Origin: Promethearchaeia archaeon
GTDB taxonomy: Archaea; Asgardarchaeota; Lokiarchaeia; Sigyniarchaeales; SOKP01
Direction: 5' to 3'
Length of the DNA stretch: 64,000 nucleotides
Assembly (NCBI GenBank): GCA_046483985.1
Contig: JAWOCD010000057.1
Location: forward strand, 1 to 64,000
Both the position numbers and the translations under genes were made by a program. How positions within the stretch are numbered: the stretch's first letter is position 1; the number at the start of each line of letters is the position of its first letter. This document shows positions 4,300 through 17,139 of the stretch, one piece after another. The notes below the pieces were generated by a model. It had not been told where the DNA came from, did no database searches, and saw nothing but the letters and a program-made list of their open reading frames with translations.

Positions 4300-5232
4300 A
4301 TGACTCAAGGCGTCTTTCTTAAAAAGTTGAAACAGGACGGAAAAACAGTAAGATCTGCCCATGTTGATACGGGAGAGAAATGTTGTAAAAATCCATCCAT
4401 AATTAAACAAGATGGTGAATTCGTATGCACTAACTGTGGATCTGTATTTTCCCAAGTTATTGATGATTCACCCTCGTATGGATTTTCCCACGAAGAGAGG
4501 ATGAAAAAGAAAACAAGTGAAAGAGTTTATAGCCCAATCGGTCCACGGACAACAATAAATGGAAGACGTGATGCGAGAGGGAATTCAATAAGCCCAGATT
4601 TAATCCAGAAATACAAAAGATTAGCAAAAATCCACAAATCGTTGACAAACAGTAAAGAAAGAAATTTATGGAAAGCTCTTCCTGTTTTTCGCAGATTAAG
4701 AAAAACCTTAAAATTACCTGACCATGTATACCAAGACGCGGTAAAAATTTACGATATAATCGTCAAAAAGAAACTTACATTGGGACGAACAATAAGGATT
4801 TTAGTTACGGCTTCAGTTTATTGTGCACTACGGGCAAATCAAATTGCTCGAACTATTGACGAAATGGCCGAAGTTTCCCAATTTCCAAAGAAGAAGATTT
4901 TGCAGAATTATAAACTGATTTGTCGTAAAGTATTACCGGAACTTGATTTGGAGATTAAACGATTATCAATCGTTCAATACGTTGATAAGTTTAATAATCA
5001 ATTGGATTTACCGATTGAATGCCGCAATGATGCACTAAAATTAATCTCCCGCAGTAAGAAAAAGGGCTTGAGATTTTCCGGAAAGAATCCCAAGGGAATT
5101 GTAGGAGCTGCCCTTTATCTCAGCGCAAAACAGCATAATATCCCTAAAACCCAAAAAGACATTGCTAATAATCTAAACATAGCACAAGTTACATTAAGAG
5201 TGCGCATAAAGGAATTACAAAAATATTGTTAA
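4300..5232 (+). CDS. tfb: Transcription initiation factor IIB (TFB paralog)
   Basis: Zn ribbon (CC...VCTNCG), ERNL, two cyclin repeats, SGKNPKGIVGAALY, TQKDIA...VTLRVR. Confidence 0.93.
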   Translation: MTQGVFLKKLKQDGKTVRSAHVDTGEKCCKNPSIIKQDGEFVCTNCGSVFSQVIDDSPSYGFSHEERMKKKTSERVYSPIGPRTTINGRRDARGNSISPDLIQKYKRLAKIHKSLTNSKERNLWKALPVFRRLRKTLKLPDHVYQDAVKIYDIIVKKKLTLGRTIRILVTASVYCALRANQIARTIDEMAEVSQFPKKKILQNYKLICRKVLPELDLEIKRLSIVQYVDKFNNQLDLPIECRNDALKLISRSKKKGLRFSGKNPKGIVGAALYLSAKQHNIPKTQKDIANNLNIAQVTLRVRIKELQKYC

Positions 5233-5540: not shown

Positions 5541-6692
5541 TTAGAAACTTTCAAAGAGTAAATCGGACATTTTTAAAGCACTCTCAATTTCCTTCAGAGT
5601 TATAAAACCAATAATTTCTTCGTTCTTTTCTGACCTAACCACTACTATTGGTGGTTTATCTTCTAATTCTCCTAATTTCATAAAAGCTTTTTTCCCCGTT
5701 TCGGTTTCTTTAATGGTAGGAAAGTCCGATAAATCCATCATAACCTCTCCAATTTTTTTTTGTGAGCGAGCTTCCATAGGTATGTTTTTTACACTATTAA
5801 TATCAACTAAGCCTGTAAATCGACCTTCTCCTTTTACCGGAAAGTATGACCTCTTATAATGTATAAAATAATCGCTTATTGCCTCGCCTACATTGATATG
5901 TTTTGGAATGGAAACATCCATAGATGTTGCAATTTTAGAAGCTTTCAATTTTGATAATTTCACTTCATAGACCGTTCTGAGGTATGCTCTTTTGGCGGAA
6001 GAGCTTATAAAACTTCCAATGATCACTAACCAAAAGCCCCCAGTGAAGCCGATAAGAAGCATTTCGATAAATCCAAGCCCCACAAGTCCATAGCCAAGAT
6101 ATTTCCCAACGTTTGATGCGGTTTTTGTAGCACCCAACAAACTATCTTTTTTCTTCCAGAGAATTGCTCTTAAGATCCTCCCGCCATCCATCGGATAAGC
6201 GGGAAGTAGATTAAATAGTCCTAAACCAATATTACTGACGCCTGCATAGAAAAGAATGACAAACAGGCTTTCAGGATATTCCATCGAGAAAAATATCTGC
6301 GAAAAAAAAAGGGTACCCAGAAATGATATTCCTAGAATGAAACTCATTGCCGGACCCACAGCGGCGATATAAGACTCTAATTTTGGTGTCTCGGGCTCTT
6401 CCATTATTTTAGATGCTCCTCCGAACATATAAAATTCGATCTCTCCTACATCTAAACCATATTTTTGGGAAACAATTGAATGCATAAGTTCATGGGCTAA
6501 AATTGAAAACAACATAATTAAACCACTGGTGATGCCTACCATAAACGCCCAAATAGGATTAAACTCCCCGATTAGGTTAGTATAATAACTCCCAGCATAA
6601 AAGCCAACCAACGCAACGATGAGCACGGTAGACCAATGGAACTTAATATTAATTCCTCTTATCTTACCAATATTCATTTGCTCTTTTTTCAC
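5541..6692 (-). CDS. Site-2 protease (M50) with C-terminal CBS pair
   Basis: LAHELMHS, FNLLPAYPMDGGR, TM segments, CBS-like C-terminus. Confidence 0.92.
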   Translation of the reverse strand: MKKEQMNIGKIRGINIKFHWSTVLIVALVGFYAGSYYTNLIGEFNPIWAFMVGITSGLIMLFSILAHELMHSIVSQKYGLDVGEIEFYMFGGASKIMEEPETPKLESYIAAVGPAMSFILGISFLGTLFFSQIFFSMEYPESLFVILFYAGVSNIGLGLFNLLPAYPMDGGRILRAILWKKKDSLLGATKTASNVGKYLGYGLVGLGFIEMLLIGFTGGFWLVIIGSFISSSAKRAYLRTVYEVKLSKLKASKIATSMDVSIPKHINVGEAISDYFIHYKRSYFPVKGEGRFTGLVDINSVKNIPMEARSQKKIGEVMMDLSDFPTIKETETGKKAFMKLGELEDKPPIVVVRSEKNEEIIGFITLKEIESALKMSDLLFESF

Positions 6693-6922: not shown

Positions 6923-7597
6923 ATGAAAGCGGAAAAAATACAACAAGAAATAATGGATCAATTATTATGGGATCCCAGAATAGATGAATCGAATATTCAA
7001 GTAACAGTAAAAGATAAATCCATTACATTAAGCGGTTTAGTTCCGTCCCATCCCCAAAAAATATACGCTGAAACGGATGTGAAAGAAGTTGGAGATATTC
7101 CACCCATAACTAATAATATAGAAGTTATCTTCTCGCCCGAGTTTAAATCTCCTAGCGATACAGAGATTAAGGAAGGGTTAGAAAAGATTTATGAGATTAA
7201 TTCTTGTCTCGATGCAGAGAAAATTTCCGTATCCATTAATAAGGGGGATGTCATCCTCAAGGGAGTGGTGAAATCCTATTGGGAAAAGGAAATGACGGAA
7301 AAATTAGCATCTGAAATACCCAGCAACTTCTTAATAAAGAATCTACTTACGGTAGAACCCCTAGAGCCGGTTACTGATGCAAAGATAGAAGAGCAAGTAA
7401 CTACAGCAATGGAGAGATCTCTACGAGTTAATAGTGAAAAGGTAGATATTAACGTAAAAAATGGAATCGTTACCTTGTCAGGAACTGTATCGTCTCTAAG
7501 CGCCTATTCTGCGGCTGAAAAGGCTGCAAAATTATCTAAAGGCGTCATCGATGTCAAGAATAATTTAAATTATGTTCTACGATATGATATCACATAA
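6923..7597 (+). CDS. Triple BON-domain protein
   Basis: Three repeats of the I.V.V..G.V.L.G.V pattern; no signal peptide evident. Confidence 0.88.
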   Translation: MKAEKIQQEIMDQLLWDPRIDESNIQVTVKDKSITLSGLVPSHPQKIYAETDVKEVGDIPPITNNIEVIFSPEFKSPSDTEIKEGLEKIYEINSCLDAEKISVSINKGDVILKGVVKSYWEKEMTEKLASEIPSNFLIKNLLTVEPLEPVTDAKIEEQVTTAMERSLRVNSEKVDINVKNGIVTLSGTVSSLSAYSAAEKAAKLSKGVIDVKNNLNYVLRYDIT

Positions 7598-7632: not shown

Positions 7633-8286
7633 CTATTGAATTTTATCTTTGGTTTCCAATTGGGCGGGTTCAGTTTTTTTGAATTGTTCGATGTTATTCA
7701 AAATAGAATCAAAATAATCTATTTCAATAGAAATGACATTATGGAAGATTTTTTGTATTGTATTTTCCTTTTCTTTCTCAAAGTTACGATTCACTTTTCG
7801 GGCTTCCGATTCTTCTTTTTCAAATGTTACTTTTGCCGATTCATATTTCTCTTTCACTTTTTTAAGATTTTGCTCATCAACTTTCTCTGCAGGTTTCGAT
7901 TTTAATTTCTCATAGTCCTTCTTAAGATCCTCATACTTCTCTTCCGCCTTTTTAGCCTCTTCAAATTCTTCTTGGCGCTCTTCATAACTTTCAACTAATT
8001 GTTCTAAGGGCTTTATTAATTTCAACTTATATTTACTCATTCTTTCATGTTTATATTTATCGATGGTATCATAGATTTGCCCTAACGCGGAACGCTGATC
8101 AATTGGTGCTTCGATATTTTTCACAATATAACTATTTATCCGCTCAAAACCACTTTTTGCTTTTCCAACCGACTGCTCTTCTATTTCTAAAAATTTGTTA
8201 TATTTCTCAATTATTTCTTCCAGTTCGGTACTCGGTCCCGAAAAAATATCTGAAACTTTGTTTATCATATCTGAAAATTTTCCCAT
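7633..8286 (-). CDS. All-helical protein, putative BAR-domain protein
   Basis: 217 aa helical protein with LIKPLEQL kink, basic tip region (EKLKSKP) and NFEKEK...IF...ISIEIDYF C-terminal helix; amphipathic N-terminus. BAR call is by eye. Confidence 0.6.
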   Translation of the reverse strand: MGKFSDMINKVSDIFSGPSTELEEIIEKYNKFLEIEEQSVGKAKSGFERINSYIVKNIEAPIDQRSALGQIYDTIDKYKHERMSKYKLKLIKPLEQLVESYEERQEEFEEAKKAEEKYEDLKKDYEKLKSKPAEKVDEQNLKKVKEKYESAKVTFEKEESEARKVNRNFEKEKENTIQKIFHNVISIEIDYFDSILNNIEQFKKTEPAQLETKDKIQ

Positions 8287-8343
8287 AGTAATTCACCACT
8301 ATATGATCTTTTAAATATATATTATCTTTAAAATTTACCAAAT

Positions 8344-10095
8344 TTATAATCTTTTTCGAAGTTCCTTGAGAGATAAGCAATTAACAATATTCGATTTCTC
8401 TAACCAGCCTCTTCGAGCAGTTGTTATTCCAAGATTCATATATCTCATTTGATCTTTGCTGTGAGAGTCTGTATTGATAGCAAGTTTTACATTGTGTTCC
8501 TTAGCTTTTTTGCAATTCATATCGGATAGATCCAATCTTTCTGGAAAGGCGTTAATTTCCATGAAAACATTGTGTTCTACTGCCTTTTCGAAAATTTTAA
8601 CCAGATCTAAATTATAGGATTCTCTTTCATTTAATATCCGACCTGTGGGGTGTCCAATTGCGTTTACGAATTCATTCTCTATTGCAGTGATAATTCTGTT
8701 TGTAATTTGGTCCTTTGACTGCTTGAAACCAGAATGAATACTGGCCACAACAAAATCTAATTGCTCTAATAGATCTTCACTGACATCCAGTCCTCCTTCA
8801 GAATCGATATTGGCCTCTATCCCCGTAAGAATTGTAATATTATTATATTCTTCGTTTAAATCTTCTATTTTTTTTATTTGAGACTCTAGTTCCTCATTGC
8901 TCATCCCCTGTGCAATTTGAAGTGTCTTCGCATGATCACAGATTGCTAAATATTCATATCCCCGTTTTTGCGCCGTGTCTGCCATCTCTTCTATTGAATG
9001 AGAGCCTTCACTCCATTTTGTATGGACATGTAGATCTCCTTTTATATCTGCTAACTCTACCAGGTCCGGAAGATCATCATTCAGAGCGGCTTCGACTTCC
9101 CCTCTATTTTCTCTCAGCTCTGGTACCACATAGGTTAATCCAAGTTTCGTATATATTTCTTCTTCGTTTCGTCCTGCAATTTTTTTATTTTCTTTTTTAT
9201 CCATTAAACCATATTCGCTTAATTTATAATTCTTATCCAAGGCAATTTGACGGACTTGAATGTTATGCTCTTTTGAACCAGTAAAGTATTGTAGCGCCGA
9301 ACCAAAACTTTCTTCATCAACCACCCTTAAATCCACCTGGAGATTATTTTCAGCTATTATGGTACTTCTTGTATGACCTTTGGAAACTACTTTTTTAACT
9401 TCCTCCATGTTAACAAAAAAGTCCATAACCTTTCCCGGATCTTTAGATGTTACCAAAATGTCGACATCCCCAATAGTTTCTTTCATTCTTCTTATAGAGC
9501 CTGCCACTCTTATCTTAATTACCTCGTCCAACTCTTTTAATCTTGTTTTAATATTTTCCGCAATAGGAAGAATATACCCTAAAATATGTCTTCCTTGAAA
9601 TTTTTCATATAATTTAATATTTTCAATAATATTCTGTTCGCTTTTCTCGCCAAACCCTTCCAATTCTCTGATTTTTTGATTATCAGCCGCTTCCTTAAGA
9701 TCTTCTAATGATGTAATATCTAATTCCTTGTTAAGCTTGAGAAGTGTTTTGGGACCCACCCCTTGTATATCCATAAGTTTTCTCAAACCGCTAGGAAATT
9801 CTTGGCGGAGTTCTTGCAAATATTCTAACTCCCCAGTTTCTATAATTTCTTCTATTTTTGTAGCGATACTTTCCCCTACTCCGGGAATATCTTGGATCTT
9901 CCCTTTTTCATAATAATTTCCTATGTCTTCAGAGAGAGTTTCAATATTCTGAGCAGCCCTCCTATAAGCACGGGGCTTAAATTGAACCCCCTTGAGATCG
10001 AGCAAATCTCCAATTTCATATAAAAATTCTGCTATTCTGCTATTTTTTGTAAAACTCATTTCATTCACCAGAACTCCTTTGTTAAATTGTACCAT
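8344..10095 (-). CDS. polX: DNA polymerase X with PHP domain
   Basis: AYRRAA, HhH motifs, GSIRR...GDVDIL, QVDLR, YFTGSKEHN, GDLHVHT, HPTGR, NTDSH. Start may be the later Met (MSFTKN). Confidence 0.95.
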   Translation of the reverse strand: MVQFNKGVLVNEMSFTKNSRIAEFLYEIGDLLDLKGVQFKPRAYRRAAQNIETLSEDIGNYYEKGKIQDIPGVGESIATKIEEIIETGELEYLQELRQEFPSGLRKLMDIQGVGPKTLLKLNKELDITSLEDLKEAADNQKIRELEGFGEKSEQNIIENIKLYEKFQGRHILGYILPIAENIKTRLKELDEVIKIRVAGSIRRMKETIGDVDILVTSKDPGKVMDFFVNMEEVKKVVSKGHTRSTIIAENNLQVDLRVVDEESFGSALQYFTGSKEHNIQVRQIALDKNYKLSEYGLMDKKENKKIAGRNEEEIYTKLGLTYVVPELRENRGEVEAALNDDLPDLVELADIKGDLHVHTKWSEGSHSIEEMADTAQKRGYEYLAICDHAKTLQIAQGMSNEELESQIKKIEDLNEEYNNITILTGIEANIDSEGGLDVSEDLLEQLDFVVASIHSGFKQSKDQITNRIITAIENEFVNAIGHPTGRILNERESYNLDLVKIFEKAVEHNVFMEINAFPERLDLSDMNCKKAKEHNVKLAINTDSHSKDQMRYMNLGITTARRGWLEKSNIVNCLSLKELRKRL

Positions 10096-10264: not shown

Positions 10265-11353
10265 TTAATCGACTACTTCTTCTTTATATGTGCTCCGCAG
10301 TATACTAAGATATTCCATCAGCACTTTGTTGGCAGTTGATTTTTGCTCGTATTCTTTTTTAATGACTCGGAACATATATTTCGGAAAGACTCGCTCAATA
10401 AAAAAATCCGATATTAACGCATAGTATTCATTGCCCTGCTCGTCTTGATACACTTGAATCATTTCATGCTCCCATAATTTTCTAAGTACCTCGTCCACAT
10501 CGTCCACACCCTTCTTTTTCAGCTTTTCTAACTCATTACGGGTTACGATAGCCGTCCGCAACAGTTTAATTGTTATGTAAACAGCGGGTTCAACAAAAAT
10601 GGAAAGTATTTTTAGATTTTCCTCCTCAGAAGGGTGGTAATCTTTGAAGAAATTCCTACAATGCTTTCTATAGGTATCTACAAAATCGCTTGGTAATCCT
10701 CTGTTTGAAGGATCTCGTGTCAACTCAACGGGAGGTATCCGCATCATCAAGAGATCATGAGTAAGGAAAATTGTTTCTGAAGGCATTCCTTTTACGGAGG
10801 CTTGTTTAACGCAGCCTTGGGTAATAATTTGTGATAGAATTCCTTCTAAATCAATGAATCCCTCAGTATATTTATCTTTTAACCAGACCATTAATTCTGA
10901 TTTGGAAACAACGCCCTCTTCACGAAGACGATTGATAATCATCCGTTTTACCTCATCCTGATAGGTCATTGCAAGCTGTTGTTCCTCATTGAGCGTGGGA
11001 TATACCGACAACCGTTGAAATAAGGAAGGAAGCATGTCCTTGTACGCTTGGTTTTCAACGTTTGCTAAGATTATTCGGGCAATATCCATAAGTCCTCCTT
11101 CATAACCATCTGGATTTTCATCAAGATTTAAAAGAAGGAGAACATAGTAACCCTTTTCGGGACCAGTATAATACGAAGCTATATTTAATGAACCCACCAT
11201 CAAACTGATCATACCCGCTTCTTGGCTATATTCATGGGTACTATAAACTTGCATAAGTGTTTTGGGGGTTATTTTTACCTCTTCCGGATATTTCGCCTCA
11301 ACGACAGAGCCAGTTCTTTCGTCCCATCTCATAAGCACCAAACCAACTGGCAT
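10265..11353 (-). CDS. Conserved hypothetical protein with longin/uDENN-like N-terminus and helical/winged-helix-like C-terminal part
   Basis: GLVLMRWDERTGSVVEAKYP beta-hairpin pattern; start overlaps the stop of the surface-protein gene (TAATG). Confidence 0.6.
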   Translation of the reverse strand: MPVGLVLMRWDERTGSVVEAKYPEEVKITPKTLMQVYSTHEYSQEAGMISLMVGSLNIASYYTGPEKGYYVLLLLNLDENPDGYEGGLMDIARIILANVENQAYKDMLPSLFQRLSVYPTLNEEQQLAMTYQDEVKRMIINRLREEGVVSKSELMVWLKDKYTEGFIDLEGILSQIITQGCVKQASVKGMPSETIFLTHDLLMMRIPPVELTRDPSNRGLPSDFVDTYRKHCRNFFKDYHPSEEENLKILSIFVEPAVYITIKLLRTAIVTRNELEKLKKKGVDDVDEVLRKLWEHEMIQVYQDEQGNEYYALISDFFIERVFPKYMFRVIKKEYEQKSTANKVLMEYLSILRSTYKEEVVD

Positions 11354-14300
11354 TACTTAGAGCCACCTCCTTGGTCTTTATCAATCGGTTTTTTCTTTAT
11401 CTTTGTTTCTTCCACCCCTAATATAGCACCCAAGGATAAGCCATATTCTCTCCATTTGTCACCTAATTTCTTCGCAGCAAATTCCTTTTTGCTTGGATAT
11501 ATTAATGATTCTGGAATTTTCTTATTCGATTCAATGGCTTCCTTCATCTTGTCAGCACGTTTGACAAATTCTGGTATTCGGGCAAGTCGTATATACCGAT
11601 ATGTCCCCAAGGAGCCAATAAGGCCAACGCCGAAAATTATACCTAGTATGAGGTAAAAAATTGGAATCGGTCCCACCTTCTCCATCCCCACATAAACATT
11701 GAAATTTATTTCTTGGGTTTCGTAGTTCTCCTTTTCAATCTCTAGAGTACATGAAAATGTTTTGCCTTGCAGGAGGGTTTCATATTGCTCTGTTTCGAGG
11801 GTGAGAGTATATATTCCCGGTTCAGTTTCCTCCAGTACGTAGGTTTCACCGTTTTCACCGTTTTCACCGTTTTCACCGGCTATTCTTAAGGTTAGAGTGG
11901 CATTTGTTAAAGCCATATCAAGACCATCGGTAGAGGAATCTGAGAGGTTAAAGCGTAAGGTAATCTCCTCTCCATGCTCAACGGTTAACGTCTTAGTATC
12001 TTCATATATTCCTTGATTATCAGTAAAATCAAAAGTTCGCTTTTCAATAATCACCGTAAGGGAAATATTAATCGTCTCAAAGTTTAACTTAGAAATGGAA
12101 ATTTTTGCGAGATCTGTTCTTGATGACTCTTCAAACTTATCATAATCAGTTATATTAATTTTATAGGTTCCGTTCTCTAAATGTTCGAATTTATAATTAC
12201 TTCCTTGATAAGTCATATTGATATCTGCACCCTCAACTGGTGGTTCATTATCCTCAATTTCATTTGTAAGAGTGATATTGAATGCTAGGGGATCACCATC
12301 ATATATACTGACTTCGTAACCCTCACTCCCTTCTTCCGGAAACGAGAAATTGTAATTAAATTGAATATTCGTAATTTTAATTGCGATTTGGTGTTGTTGC
12401 GTAAGGTATTGAGCCTTTTCCATCTTTATATCGGCCATAAAGGTTTGCGACTCCAAATATTCTTCTAATCGAGTATAATTGTCCCCTGCCTTTAAAGTGA
12501 GAGTGTAATTTCCATCACCCTCATATGTAAAATTAAAATCGGTATCTTGAAATGTCATACTCACATTGGCCCCTTCTAAAGATTCGTTTTCTTTGTCTGT
12601 AAGAGTAAAAGTCAATTTAATATTCTCACCTGAATATATAGAATATAAGTTCTCTTCTCCATCTTCTCCAAAGTCTTCTCCATGCATTTTATAATCAAAT
12701 TCACGTCTTCGAATAATTACCGTTATATAAGATGTTTCAGTAATATAATTTTCTTTTTCTATGGTGAGCTCAACGTTATCGCTTGTGATGGTTTGAAAAT
12801 CGTCTAATTTAGGTAAGTCCTCAGCGGAAATGGTCATGTTGTATGTACCATCTCCATTGTCCGTGAAATTAGCCCCGGAATCATATTTGATTGTAGCATT
12901 ATCGAGTGACATACTTGTAAGGTTATCATTGAGGGAAATATTCAAATGAAGATCTTCTCCTTCATAGATTTCTACTTCTTGATCCTCGATTTCCATTTCT
13001 TGATCTCCAGTTGAATATGTTAAATTATAAGCAAATTCCCTGTTAGTGATCGTAATGGTGATGGTGTCAATCTGTGTGGAATAATTCGTCTTTTGTGCGG
13101 TAATGGTGAGCATATGAGTTCCTACGTCTAAAGCACCTGGCGCGATGGTGGCGTTGTAATAGATTCCCTCTAATTCAAGGGTTCCATTGATGCCGCTCCC
13201 TGTTATGATGACGTTCGCGTCTTCGATATAGCTTTCCAAGTCTGTATCATTGTAGCCGATTGCCACGGAAATCGATTCATTCCACGCTACCTCATAACTA
13301 CTTCTTTTCTCTCCGTCTATGAACGGGTCCGAGATCTCCGTTTCCCTGTTAGTGACCGTTACGGATATTCTGATCGAACTAACGGTGTAATTGTCCTTGA
13401 TTCCCTCAAGGGTGAATGTATGTGTATCCACTGGAAGCTTCCCTGCCTCGATAGTCCCGTTATAGGTCCCATCTCTTTCTTCTAAAGAAACGGAAATGTC
13501 CTCGTTAGAAAGGGTGAGATTAAGATTCGAAACAAATTCATCTGTTTGAGAATCATTAATAACCACGCCAATGGGTAATGAGTCATTCCACGGTAAGGCT
13601 ATGGCTCTGTCATCTGTACTATTAACATTGTTTAAGAATAATTGATCATAATAGAATTCTCGATTTTCTACTCGTAGTGTAAGCGGAATAATGGTAGTGG
13701 TATAATTTGCCTTGGTGATATTTAGTTCTGCCGAAAAGATGTCATAAATTAATTCTGGATCCAAGGGTTGATAATCGGTGATATGTAAGGAATAGTTACC
13801 GCCTTCGTTTTCCTCTAATGAGTAGGACAGTTCATTAAAGAAATCTGTATCTTCAAGTTGTAGGGTCACATTTGCATCTTCAATTGCGGATAGATCACTA
13901 CTATCATTTAATTGAATGCTAAACGATACGGGGTCACCGCAATCCATTTTTAATCTCTCACGGTTATCAAATTCCTCCGATAATGTCCAATTAATGTCCC
14001 GTATATTAACTCTTAAATTAACAATTGCCATCCGACTTTCATAATTATCCTTTTCCAAGTAGACGTATATGTTATATTCTCCGGTATCTCTATTCTCAGT
14101 GTTAAAATCCAGTAAAAGAGAGCCATTAGAAAGGGGTATTAAATTCCCCTCTTCTTCATTTCCCCATTCCCATTCTGCTACCGTTAAGTCTTCTATAGTG
14201 CTATTATCATCGCGAATATCGCGATATGTGAAAGTAAAATTGACCGCTTCCCCAACATCGATTGTTTCGGATACACTAAGGACATCGGTGTGATTGTTAA

Positions 14301-17139
14301 TTGAGGTTGGTCTTCGTACGATATAAACGGTATCAGTTATTTCTTCTGTGGTATGATTCTCTTTCCTCATTATAATCTCCATAGTATAAGAACCAACATC
14401 ATCGGGAAGCGATGCATTCACAAGGAATGTATAATTTCCAGGATTTTCGGGGTCTTCGGCATCGTCAATATAGTCAGCCGAATCCCAATCCCCTAAGGAA
14501 TAGGACAATTCAGCTCCCGAAATTGACGAGTTATCATTGGTATTCCTATAAGACACGGTGATATTTTCGGATTCATCGTAATAAATATCATCGTAGTCGT
14601 GCAATTCGACTTCTGTTGGCAATGCTTGCACTTCGAAACCGATGTTTAACGGGTCGGGATCGGTATACCCCGTCTTGGACGCTGTGATCCGCATAGAATA
14701 AGACTCACTATCTTCACCACTGCTCAAACCTTGTTCGGTTGTGTTAAACGTGAAATTAAATATTCCAGTTTCACCCTCAACTTTATGTTCCATTAGGTCG
14801 ATGGGGTCTCCAATGTTTATATATTGACTATCGCGAAATTGCAATTGAATCGTATCGGGATCTACTAATTCGGAATCAGTTTCATTTACTATACTCGAAA
14901 AATTTACTTTTATGCTGACATTGTCTCCCCACTCAATATCTTCAAAAAAATTTGAAGGTTCTTGGTCAATTTTCTCAAGTTTTGTTTCATAATCTTCAAT
15001 ATTTAGCTGTACCTCCAATGAAAGACTGAGTTGATCATCGAAGGTCATATTCAATCCTTGGTCTTTCTCGAGCCACTCATCATTGCCTTTTTCCCTAAAA
15101 GTTCGATTACTTCCTGCAAATTCAATTAAAACAGTATAATTTCCCCACTCTGCCGTTTGATTATTCAATCCATAAAAGGTTGCAGTGCCCTCTCCATCAG
15201 TTTTTAATTCTGCCACGCGATCTTGCTCTTTAGGGCTATATGTCTCATTATAAATCTTTACCAAGGCATTCTGGAGCGGATCATTAGAATCATCTCTTAC
15301 CTCAAATGAAACACTCGAGAATAAGGTTTGTTTTTCAATGTCCGTAGAATTTCTGGAAACGGTATCGTTAAAAATCAACAATTGACTTTGATTATAGAGT
15401 GAATCATCGGTAAGCATAGTATAATCATAATAAACCTCATAATCGTATTCCGATTGGTTAAGCCATCTGATAGTTGCCATACCATTATCTAATGTCTGAT
15501 TTCCCACTGTCTCGGAATCATTTTGCAGCAGAATATAGCCGTTATCTATTGGTTCATCATCATAATCGGAAATATTGAAATGTAGTGTCCATAAATCAAG
15601 GTCAAGTTCTTTTACGGGATCTTCCTCTAACCCCGTTAAGTTATAATCCTCCTCAAAGTACACAATTTCGGTTTCTCCGTCGATGAGTCCATGTTGTGTG
15701 TAGTTCACCGTTATATTGTAAAGACCCTCAGAGAGATCAGTAGCCATGAACTTTCCATCCTCATCGGTCACACCAGATTGATGAAAATCATCTTCTCCAG
15801 AAATGATAACCTCTGCATTTGGAACACTAAAGTTGTCAACATCCACGCAATTTATTTCAAGGTCCGCAGAAATACGGTCTCCTATCTCCACAATCGGTTC
15901 GCTATCTGTATATTTCTTTACCATAGTTGTATTGGGACTGTTGGGGGTTGTATAGCCTCGGTAATCGTATAAGTCTGAAATTTCTTCTTGCGAGAGAGTT
16001 TCATTAAAAATCATTAATTCATCTTGAACATGTTGCGCTGGGTCTTCCCCTTTTCCAATCGATAAATTTTCACCAGTGGCAGATATTGCACTAAGTCCAC
16101 TATCCTCGGACTTTCTTTCTACTCCATCAACATATATACTCATTAATCCTTGATCAAATGTTGCCACCACATGTTGCCATTCGTTTAATTTATACTCATA
16201 TTCTACGCCCTCTTGTGCTTGGATTTCATAGGTATTTCCTCCATCCCCGACCCAGAAAAAAATCCCTTGACGGTCAGGTTGTTGTGGATGTCGTTCCAAA
16301 CGAAATGCATATCCTCTCCCATCTTCACCATTTCGAGCCTCAAGGATAGGCATTTCGAAATTCTTCTCATCATATTGAGGTTTTAGCCAAAACGATAAAG
16401 ACATTTGCTCCATGTCGGAATTTAAACTCTCATTATTCCCAATCTCAACATATCCAGGATTAGATAACTCTAGGGCATTCCCAAACACACCGTCAACCCA
16501 AGTTGGATCTTCCATTAATGTCCCGTGGTTCTCATTTCCAGATGTATCATTAGCACTAATCCCCTCTCCTTCATCAAAATGCCAAGCCCCTTGGGTACCA
16601 TCAAGGACAGCGATAAATGTGTCTTCCGCACTTGACTGACATGTCGCATTAGGATTTCCGAAGTACATATAAAATGTAGTTTCTTCATTAAGTTCCAGCG
16701 TGGGTACCTTCACCCAGATCGTACTATTGTTGCCGCTTGTATCATCAATTTTTTCGATCCAGTAATCGAGCTCGGTGTTGGTCGAATCTACAAAACGAAT
16801 ATCCTTTCCGGTTTCATTCATATACTCGTTATCAATCCAGTTCGCCATCTGTATATCAATCCGGGTCGGATAATTTTCTAACTGTTCACCAGTCGAAGTT
16901 ATATTTATCGGAACTCTATGCTGCCACGTGTCATTCCACCATTCCACATCTGAAGAATGGAGAGGGGAATTTAAATCTTCAGTCTCTTTTATATCTTCGA
17001 TTTGACTTCTTGTATTTTGGTTTTGATAATTATCTGTGGATTTATCCGCTGGAAACATTAAAAAAATAGCTGACAGCATCAAAATCATCATAACTAGTAA
17101 GGTCATTACTTGAAATTTTTTGCTTTGTGGTTTTATCAT
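11353..17139 (-). CDS. Giant acidic cell-surface protein: N-terminal anchor, DUF2341, LamG, tandem Ig-like repeats, C-terminal TM and cytoplasmic tail
   Basis: WWNDTWQHRVPI...DIRF...LDYWIE...IWVKVP...YMYFGNP (DUF2341); WHFDEGEG, WQHVVATFD...IYVDG (LamG); repeated ...K.NY... beta modules; many N-x-S/T sequons; TM near the C-terminus. Confidence 0.85.
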   Translation of the reverse strand: MIKPQSKKFQVMTLLVMMILMLSAIFLMFPADKSTDNYQNQNTRSQIEDIKETEDLNSPLHSSDVEWWNDTWQHRVPINITSTGEQLENYPTRIDIQMANWIDNEYMNETGKDIRFVDSTNTELDYWIEKIDDTSGNNSTIWVKVPTLELNEETTFYMYFGNPNATCQSSAEDTFIAVLDGTQGAWHFDEGEGISANDTSGNENHGTLMEDPTWVDGVFGNALELSNPGYVEIGNNESLNSDMEQMSLSFWLKPQYDEKNFEMPILEARNGEDGRGYAFRLERHPQQPDRQGIFFWVGDGGNTYEIQAQEGVEYEYKLNEWQHVVATFDQGLMSIYVDGVERKSEDSGLSAISATGENLSIGKGEDPAQHVQDELMIFNETLSQEEISDLYDYRGYTTPNSPNTTMVKKYTDSEPIVEIGDRISADLEINCVDVDNFSVPNAEVIISGEDDFHQSGVTDEDGKFMATDLSEGLYNITVNYTQHGLIDGETEIVYFEEDYNLTGLEEDPVKELDLDLWTLHFNISDYDDEPIDNGYILLQNDSETVGNQTLDNGMATIRWLNQSEYDYEVYYDYTMLTDDSLYNQSQLLIFNDTVSRNSTDIEKQTLFSSVSFEVRDDSNDPLQNALVKIYNETYSPKEQDRVAELKTDGEGTATFYGLNNQTAEWGNYTVLIEFAGSNRTFREKGNDEWLEKDQGLNMTFDDQLSLSLEVQLNIEDYETKLEKIDQEPSNFFEDIEWGDNVSIKVNFSSIVNETDSELVDPDTIQLQFRDSQYINIGDPIDLMEHKVEGETGIFNFTFNTTEQGLSSGEDSESYSMRITASKTGYTDPDPLNIGFEVQALPTEVELHDYDDIYYDESENITVSYRNTNDNSSISGAELSYSLGDWDSADYIDDAEDPENPGNYTFLVNASLPDDVGSYTMEIIMRKENHTTEEITDTVYIVRRPTSINNHTDVLSVSETIDVGEAVNFTFTYRDIRDDNSTIEDLTVAEWEWGNEEEGNLIPLSNGSLLLDFNTENRDTGEYNIYVYLEKDNYESRMAIVNLRVNIRDINWTLSEEFDNRERLKMDCGDPVSFSIQLNDSSDLSAIEDANVTLQLEDTDFFNELSYSLEENEGGNYSLHITDYQPLDPELIYDIFSAELNITKANYTTTIIPLTLRVENREFYYDQLFLNNVNSTDDRAIALPWNDSLPIGVVINDSQTDEFVSNLNLTLSNEDISVSLEERDGTYNGTIEAGKLPVDTHTFTLEGIKDNYTVSSIRISVTVTNRETEISDPFIDGEKRSSYEVAWNESISVAIGYNDTDLESYIEDANVIITGSGINGTLELEGIYYNATIAPGALDVGTHMLTITAQKTNYSTQIDTITITITNREFAYNLTYSTGDQEMEIEDQEVEIYEGEDLHLNISLNDNLTSMSLDNATIKYDSGANFTDNGDGTYNMTISAEDLPKLDDFQTITSDNVELTIEKENYITETSYITVIIRRREFDYKMHGEDFGEDGEENLYSIYSGENIKLTFTLTDKENESLEGANVSMTFQDTDFNFTYEGDGNYTLTLKAGDNYTRLEEYLESQTFMADIKMEKAQYLTQQHQIAIKITNIQFNYNFSFPEEGSEGYEVSIYDGDPLAFNITLTNEIEDNEPPVEGADINMTYQGSNYKFEHLENGTYKINITDYDKFEESSRTDLAKISISKLNFETINISLTVIIEKRTFDFTDNQGIYEDTKTLTVEHGEEITLRFNLSDSSTDGLDMALTNATLTLRIAGENGENGENGETYVLEETEPGIYTLTLETEQYETLLQGKTFSCTLEIEKENYETQEINFNVYVGMEKVGPIPIFYLILGIIFGVGLIGSLGTYRYIRLARIPEFVKRADKMKEAIESNKKIPESLIYPSKKEFAAKKLGDKWREYGLSLGAILGVEETKIKKKPIDKDQGGGSK
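11844..11878. repeat. In-frame 9-bp tandem repeat (TTTCACCGT, about 4 units) encoding GENGENGENGE
   Basis: Seen directly in DNA and in the translation. Confidence 0.9.

Follow-up and report, generated by a model that had tools for sequence, protein, structure and literature searches.

A gene for a BAR-like protein was identified in the 64,000-nucleotide stretch of a Promethearchaeia genome analysed here (the window). It lies on the minus strand at 7633..8286, starts with ATG and codes for a protein of 217 amino acids (P0001), a divergent member of a CIBAR/FAM92-like family of the Promethearchaeia. The open frame comprises 219 amino acids with just two in-frame codons ahead of M1, which is the sole possible start. 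A ribosome-binding-like site (GGTGA) is present 6 nt upstream of the ATG, within the 57-bp intergenic region following polX (8287..8343, minus strand), which also contains an AT-rich TATA-like stretch. To judge from this region, the BAR gene probably has its own promoter. In one study, RNA libraries of four salt-lake samples yielded contigs that match the ORF at 99% identity or more, which suggests that the gene is transcribed. The contigs do not cover polX or the BON gene described below; since this stretch itself guided the choice of runs, they do not allow a ranking of the genes.

The BAR gene follows a gene for a PolX-PHP protein (8344-10095, minus strand) and faces one for a protein with three BON domains (6923-7597, plus strand), an order common only to the nearest relatives. 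Further neighbours are genes for an M50-CBS protease (5541-6692, minus strand) and a TFIIB-family protein (4300-5232, plus strand); none of these neighbours is linked to the BAR gene beyond close relatives, and no conserved neighbourhood was found across the archaeal BAR family. Also in the window, a 1928-aa surface-type protein is encoded at 10265-17139 (minus strand), and its stop overlaps the start of a 362-aa gene, for which no Pfam match was obtained under E 0.06. A second BAR gene was not found in the genome, which is 97% complete, and the family profile matched no other of its 7135 ORFs at E ≤10. The description of P0001 as "stand-alone" in the initial annotation is thus appropriate, as the protein consists of a single domain and neither a further BAR gene in the genome nor a family-wide neighbourhood was detected; some of its relatives are tandem or fused proteins.

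BAR fold and kinship with CIBAR1/FAM92A

BAR domains form banana-shaped dimers, with which eukaryotes sense and bend membranes. The AlphaFold2 model of P0001 (pLDDT 87) is all-helical, with helices at residues 2-14, 18-57, 62-129 and 138-205. Helix 1 of the BAR domain consists of an amphipathic N-terminal third (residues 1-16, 8239..8286; pLDDT about 58-60), a Gly-Pro break (residues 17-21, 8224..8238) and the remainder of the helix (residues 22-57, 8116..8223; all features on the minus strand). It is followed by helix 2 (residues 62-129, 7900..8103), the basic tip (residues 127-137, 7876..7908) and helix 3 (residues 138-205, 7672..7875), which contains F169 and K173. Helix 2 is kinked at Pro93, a position occupied by Pro in 90% of the family and aligned to Pro98 of FAM92A1. 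The Pro kink, the basic tip (127-135) and the last helix quoted initially in favour of a BAR-like layout are all present in the 217-aa ORF. In a Foldseek search with the model, the best match was FAM92A (9uhd), and all 50 matches listed belonged to the BAR superfamily; superposition on 9uhd by VIA-align gave a Z score of 16.4 and an rmsd of 2.6 Å over 207 aligned residues. By VIA, the fit of the monomer is better with classical BARs than with F- or I-BARs, and arfaptin was level with FAM92A in this comparison (Z 16.1 vs. 16.4). The structure thus indicates a classical BAR, and it is the sequence that points to FAM92 as the closer relative.

An antiparallel homodimer with a six-helix core was predicted with a score of 0.72, compared to 0.00 for the best control, applying a mark attained by 20 of 30 solved pairs and one of 23 single chains. 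The separate runs had at least 71% of the contacts in common, with pLDDT values of at least 80, and the pass may stem from likeness to solved BAR dimers. The predicted interface pairs helix 1 with 1' (residues 22-57 in antiparallel contact, 25-53 with the partner), helix 3 with 3' (two-fold near residues 192-196) and the start of helix 2 with 3'. The top covarying pair of residues in the family is 29-46, joined by 29-43 and 28-42. These pairs are too distant within one straight helix and agree with the predicted inter-chain contacts of helices 1 and 1', with the caveat that the covariation alignment overlaps the one supplied to the dimer predictor. The same interface has been described for FAM92A (PMC12269497), and the inter-subunit pair E62-K176 of FAM92A1 (PMC11266426) corresponds to E57 (92% conserved) and K173 (88%) in the archaeal family, with N57 in P0001. 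Matches by profile, Foldseek and VIA were to BAR domains over the full length, and the assignment of P0001 as a classical BAR with three long helices and a Pro kink is strongly supported by the model, with the homodimer standing as a prediction.

Searches with the single sequence were uninformative: Pfam placed CCDC93_CC ahead of BAR with both below the cut-off, PDB sequences yielded nothing significant beyond chance coiled coils, and P0001 by itself did not match the FAM92 profile (PF06730) at E ≤1. A family profile derived from P0001 and 41 relatives matched mouse and human CIBAR1/FAM92A among PDB sequences with E values of 7.8e-23 and 4.3e-21, respectively (84 and 78 bits), in an alignment of about 200 positions with one 2-residue gap. 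The next match was amphiphysin (E 8.8e-6, 28 bits). Among the 42 family members, the FAM92 profile of Pfam matched 27 and the Vps5 profile three, and PF06730 scored above its cut-off in 20 of 301 genomes of the phylum and in none of 14 controls. In the ESM Atlas, P0001 adjoins an archaeal cluster named FAM92, followed by eukaryotic BIN3 and FAM92 clusters. The sequence comparisons strongly support kinship of the archaeal family with FAM92/CIBAR, as the initial annotation had proposed. Its second comparison, to SNX-BARs, amounts to a general likeness of the fold (SNX5, Z 14.9; Vps5, Z 13.5), given the few members matched by the Vps5 profile.

P0001 shares with CIBAR1/FAM92A (PF06730; PDB 9uhd and 8ceg) a three-helix classical BAR without extra helices, which is colinear over about 200 residues, as well as the Pro kink, the basic tip triad and the dimer interfaces between helices 1/1' and 3/3'. 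The archaeal family additionally has the YAxxETPxL loop between helices 1 and 2, the pair equivalent to E62-K176 and an IExxFHxKAL stretch in helix 3; the loop and the Glu-Lys pair (Y 78%, E 92%, P 65%, K173 88% in the family) are degenerate in P0001. Unlike CIBAR1/FAM92A, P0001 carries no C-terminal extension, has lost the ETP motif and does not match PF06730 on its own. It also differs from SNX-BAR/Vps5 proteins and the fusions reported from Thorarchaeia in containing no PX or Vps28 domain: all of its 217 residues belong to the BAR domain, and there is no in-frame upstream extension which might code for a PX domain. With N-BARs (amphiphysin, endophilin, BIN1/2), it has the core fold (Z 13-15), the kinked helix 2 and the basic tips in common.

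The N-terminal segment and the presumed membrane face

An N-BAR-like H0 helix had been proposed for the N-terminus of P0001. In N-BAR proteins, an additional unstructured N-terminus forms H0 ahead of helix 1 (PMC5487894), and helix 1 of FAM92A1 spans residues 2-61 with no extra helix (PMC11266426). In the VIA superpositions, residue 1 of P0001 aligns to position 6 of FAM92A, 32 of amphiphysin, 26-27 of endophilin A1, 35 of endophilin B1 and 37 of BIN2. We take the last four positions to be the start of helix 1, after H0; unlike the N-BARs, P0001 begins where their helix 1 begins. The profile alignment, which involves no model, gave the same N-terminal register to FAM92A. Between the hydrophobic positions 15 and 22 lie exactly six residues in every one of the 86 relatives, and the phase of hydrophobicity continues from residues 1-16 into helix 1 (39 vs. 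26 degrees), with Pro occurring in the 17-21 linker of only nine of the 86 family members. Register, alignment and phase indicate that residues 1-16 represent the first third of helix 1, which is broken in the P0001 clade by Gly17-Pro18.

The hydrophobic moment of residues 1-16 (0.64) is the highest among the 16-residue segments, closely followed by residues 18-33 (0.63) and 190-205 (0.60), so the amphipathicity is real but not special. The amphipathic start noted initially is therefore present, but it equals the next segment of the same helix and does not constitute a separate H0, and the proposal of an archaeal H0-bearing N-BAR fails. Beneath the N-terminal segment, positions 98, 101, 104, 108 and 169 of helices 2 and 3 are conserved hydrophobics. 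No covariation above noise was detected between residues 1-17 and helices 2/3, and model confidence is low for residues 1-20 (pLDDT 58-60). As the beginning of helix 1, residues 1-16 likely dock on the arm formed by helices 2 and 3.

We judged the membrane face by mapping the lipid-binding sites of FAM92A through the profile alignment, not by electrostatic calculation. K127, K129 and K131 of P0001 match the lipid-binding residues R132, R134 and R136 of FAM92A1, and the tip lysines K127 and K131 are conserved at 82-88% in the family. In FAM92A, mutation of the central basic patch takes away about 90% of binding, and region 4 is equally important (PMC12269497). The residues of this patch (R108, K109, R112, R114 and K116) correspond to E34, I35, Q38, V40 and K42 of P0001, while the family has a median net charge of -1 at these five sites; region 4 corresponds to E95, E109 and D120. 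Residues 22-57 of helix 1 are neutral to acidic where FAM92A has its central basic patch. Over 16 positions matching basic sites of FAM92A, P0001 has a net charge of 0 vs. a family median of +3, and the lysine stripe of distal helix 2 amounts to +3 vs. +7. The net charge of the whole protein is -6, within the range of the proteome (27th percentile). The mapped concave face has basic tips and a neutral centre. Because this centre is neutral to acidic, P0001 more likely senses or stabilises existing curvature than tubulates membranes strongly.

P0001 is strongly diverged within its family. The nearest homologue, from a Promethearchaeia MAG, shows 76% identity, typical members about 20-30%. In an unrooted archaeal tree obtained by a quick method, P0001-P0003 form a long-branch clade within the family with a stem of 1.43 changes per site. 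The ETP loop motif is lost in all three proteins, and P0001 carries E109, E116 and D120 where the family has Lys.

Proposed function and alternative readings

From the profile matches and the model, we regard P0001 as a genuine, divergent CIBAR/FAM92-like classical BAR and not an N-BAR. With moderate confidence, we further favour a function as a minimal classical BAR without H0, the dimer of which would sense or stabilise curvature rather than act as a strong tubulator. The cytoplasmic dimer would bind to anionic headgroups at the inner face of the cell membrane, mainly via the two lysine-rich tips and distal helix 2, and would prefer membrane curving into the cytoplasm, as in invaginations or in necks at the base of protrusions. 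Residues 1-16 would stay docked, as part of helix 1, on the arm of helices 2 and 3, and the gene would be accessory, its product being a fast-evolving, acid-shifted variant. We counted N57 in place of E57, the missing ETP loop motif and the net charge of -6 against this proposal, as well as the reduced charge at the sites equivalent to FAM92A and along the distal helix 2 stripe, the lack of a PF06730 match by P0001 alone and the low model confidence for residues 1-20.

A different role of the N-terminus appears unlikely, although several observations would suit it. With Gly17-Pro18 as a hinge, residues 1-16 might detach and enter the bilayer, offsetting the lost basic patch, so that P0001 would work in an N-BAR-like manner without being an N-BAR, its residues 1-16 still being homologous to the start of helix 1. 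The helix break, the low pLDDT and the position of residues 1-20 outside the predicted dimer interface would allow such a movement, and the amphipathic N-terminal pattern with flanking Lys is found family-wide (median moment 0.56, charge +1). The helix of P0001 itself, however, has a net charge of 0 and a HeliQuest-type discriminant of 0.57, below the threshold, which we take to be 0.68. The register to helix 1 is fixed in all 86 relatives, with Pro in only nine of them, helices 2/3 offer a conserved hydrophobic groove that matches the segment, and the internal second repeats of tandem proteins carry the same pattern far from any N-terminus. Removal of residues 1-40 of human FAM92A1 lowered membrane insertion, but the truncated protein still tubulated (PMC6314547).

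It is more doubtful still that P0001 represents a BAR-fold scaffold whose lineage has largely lost membrane activity and now either binds proteins or is drifting. The long stem branch of P0001-P0003, the missing loop signature, the replacement of several conserved lysines (by E109, E116 and D120), and the lack of detectable family members in about 60% of near-complete genomes of the class would agree with such a decay. Against it, three relatives at 59-76% identity have kept the ORF intact, the tip lysines and core hydrophobics are retained, the protein is not unusually acidic for its proteome, and the RNA contigs from the salt lakes suggest transcription. The remaining alternative, a generic coiled coil or PspA/ESCRT-III-type protein resembling BAR domains by chance, is hardly tenable. 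It draws on the preference of the single sequence for CCDC93_CC over BAR in Pfam (both below the cut-off), on the absence of a significant PDB match of P0001 alone and on a resemblance, judged by eye, of its N-terminus to helix 0 of PspA. The full-length BAR matches by profile and by structure, as well as the specificity of the family profile among the ORFs of the genome, refute it computationally, and PspA and ESCRT-III are absent among the fold matches listed, in which the BAR match spans the whole chain.

BAR domains have been counted among the eukaryotic signature proteins of Loki archaea since the first genome. According to a review (PMC4917890), the initial study of the Lokiarchaeum genome already included a putative BAR protein, and a relative of P0001 in L. 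ossiferum is annotated as BAR. Vps5-BAR domains were reported in Asgard archaea (PMC10307638), and Vps5-BAR-Vps28 fusions have been reported for Thorarchaeia. A study on Lokiactin mentions two BAR proteins detected below significance by co-immunoprecipitation (PMC13716822), which are presumably products of the L. ossiferum family genes. We found no paper on a FAM92 link of archaeal BARs, those combining FAM92 and archaea being on unrelated subjects as judged by title and abstract, and none on the purification or testing of a Loki BAR protein; Pfam tags and the cluster name in the ESM Atlas already show the archaeal FAM92 link. The closest solved relative belongs to a single eukaryotic subfamily, CIBAR/FAM92, acting at the cilium base and in mitochondrial cristae. 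Given this kinship to one subfamily, two questions become testable, namely if ether-lipid membranes are bent by archaeal BARs and if the subfamily is older than the eukaryotes or was transferred. Because P0001 is divergent and acidic, it is a poor choice for such tests, and a typical member or the L. ossiferum proteins would be better suited. A more far-reaching scenario, which we consider rather improbable, is that the family descended vertically as the archaeal sister group of eukaryotic CIBAR/FAM92 and shapes membrane necks where Loki protrusions begin, with the hinged start of helix 1 serving as a membrane wedge in the P0001 lineage. If so, this hinged start might be a possible step towards H0, and neck shaping at the protrusion base would parallel the role of CIBAR1 at the base of the cilium.

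Distribution and variants of the archaeal family

The family profile recovered members from 60 of 400 genomes of the phylum, all from the same class and 59 from the same order, and a shorter profile from 38 of the 98 class genomes with a completeness of 90% or more; the family is patchy within the Promethearchaeia. In about 240 genomes of other classes, it went undetected by scans which also missed the published fusions of Thorarchaeia, and remote members may escape them. A scan with PF09325 for these Vps5-BAR-Vps28 fusions reached the cut-off nowhere, and long Vps28 ORFs gave no score with the family profile. As the fusions were missed, the genome scan is insensitive to remote BARs. Two sub-threshold matches (G015 and G035) proved to be coiled coils without a significant family-profile score. 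Vps28 was observed in other contexts, namely in 465-490 aa proteins of family f7 with an N-terminus that looks UEV-like by eye and which are not BAR proteins (L169:682-2079, L176:1489-2904), and as a C-terminal half inside an ORF of about 797 aa (G000:C59:43704-43976), similar ORFs of 790-820 aa being present across family f1. Apparent members from "Hodarchaeota", "Thorarchaeota" and "Hermodarchaeota" (P0063, P0068, L107) match the same-family GTDB genomes G144, G258 and G198 and were dismissed as label mismatches; the MAGs bearing these NCBI labels (L133, L134 and L107, respectively) match genomes of the window's own GTDB family.

L. ossiferum contains three family genes with five domains in total. 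Its protein NEF87_003839 (UniRef100_A0ABY6HYC5, "BAR domain-containing protein") belongs to the same family as P0001 by sequence, yet it is a tandem two-domain protein, whereas P0001 is single-domain, acidic and on a long branch. Tandem BAR-BAR single chains of 444-547 aa are encoded in the neighbouring family f2 (L083:3184-4560, L085:3148-4788, L021, L022 and L095; proteins P0017 and P0026), and L. ossiferum has two of these tandem proteins plus a single-domain copy. A single-sequence model of P0026 reached a pLDDT of 58 and was too poor for use. The second repeats of the tandem proteins group together with a support of 96, which suggests an old internal duplication. In one further variant (L092:1887-3449, G314:C39), HEAT/PBS-lyase repeats are fused N-terminally to the family BAR domain.

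In seven loci from two genera (L098, L099, L108, L115, L126, L133 and L134), the BAR gene adjoins a radical SAM gene, mostly together with an EMC3/TMCO1-like gene, a proximity which is probably local synteny. A gelsolin gene is located about 4.5 kb from the BAR gene in L133 and L134. A very divergent member of 219 aa with a shortened N-terminus was detected in another order of the class (L082:2615-3277, G311), where it directly follows an FAD-oxidoreductase cluster that is also found upstream in L133 and L134.
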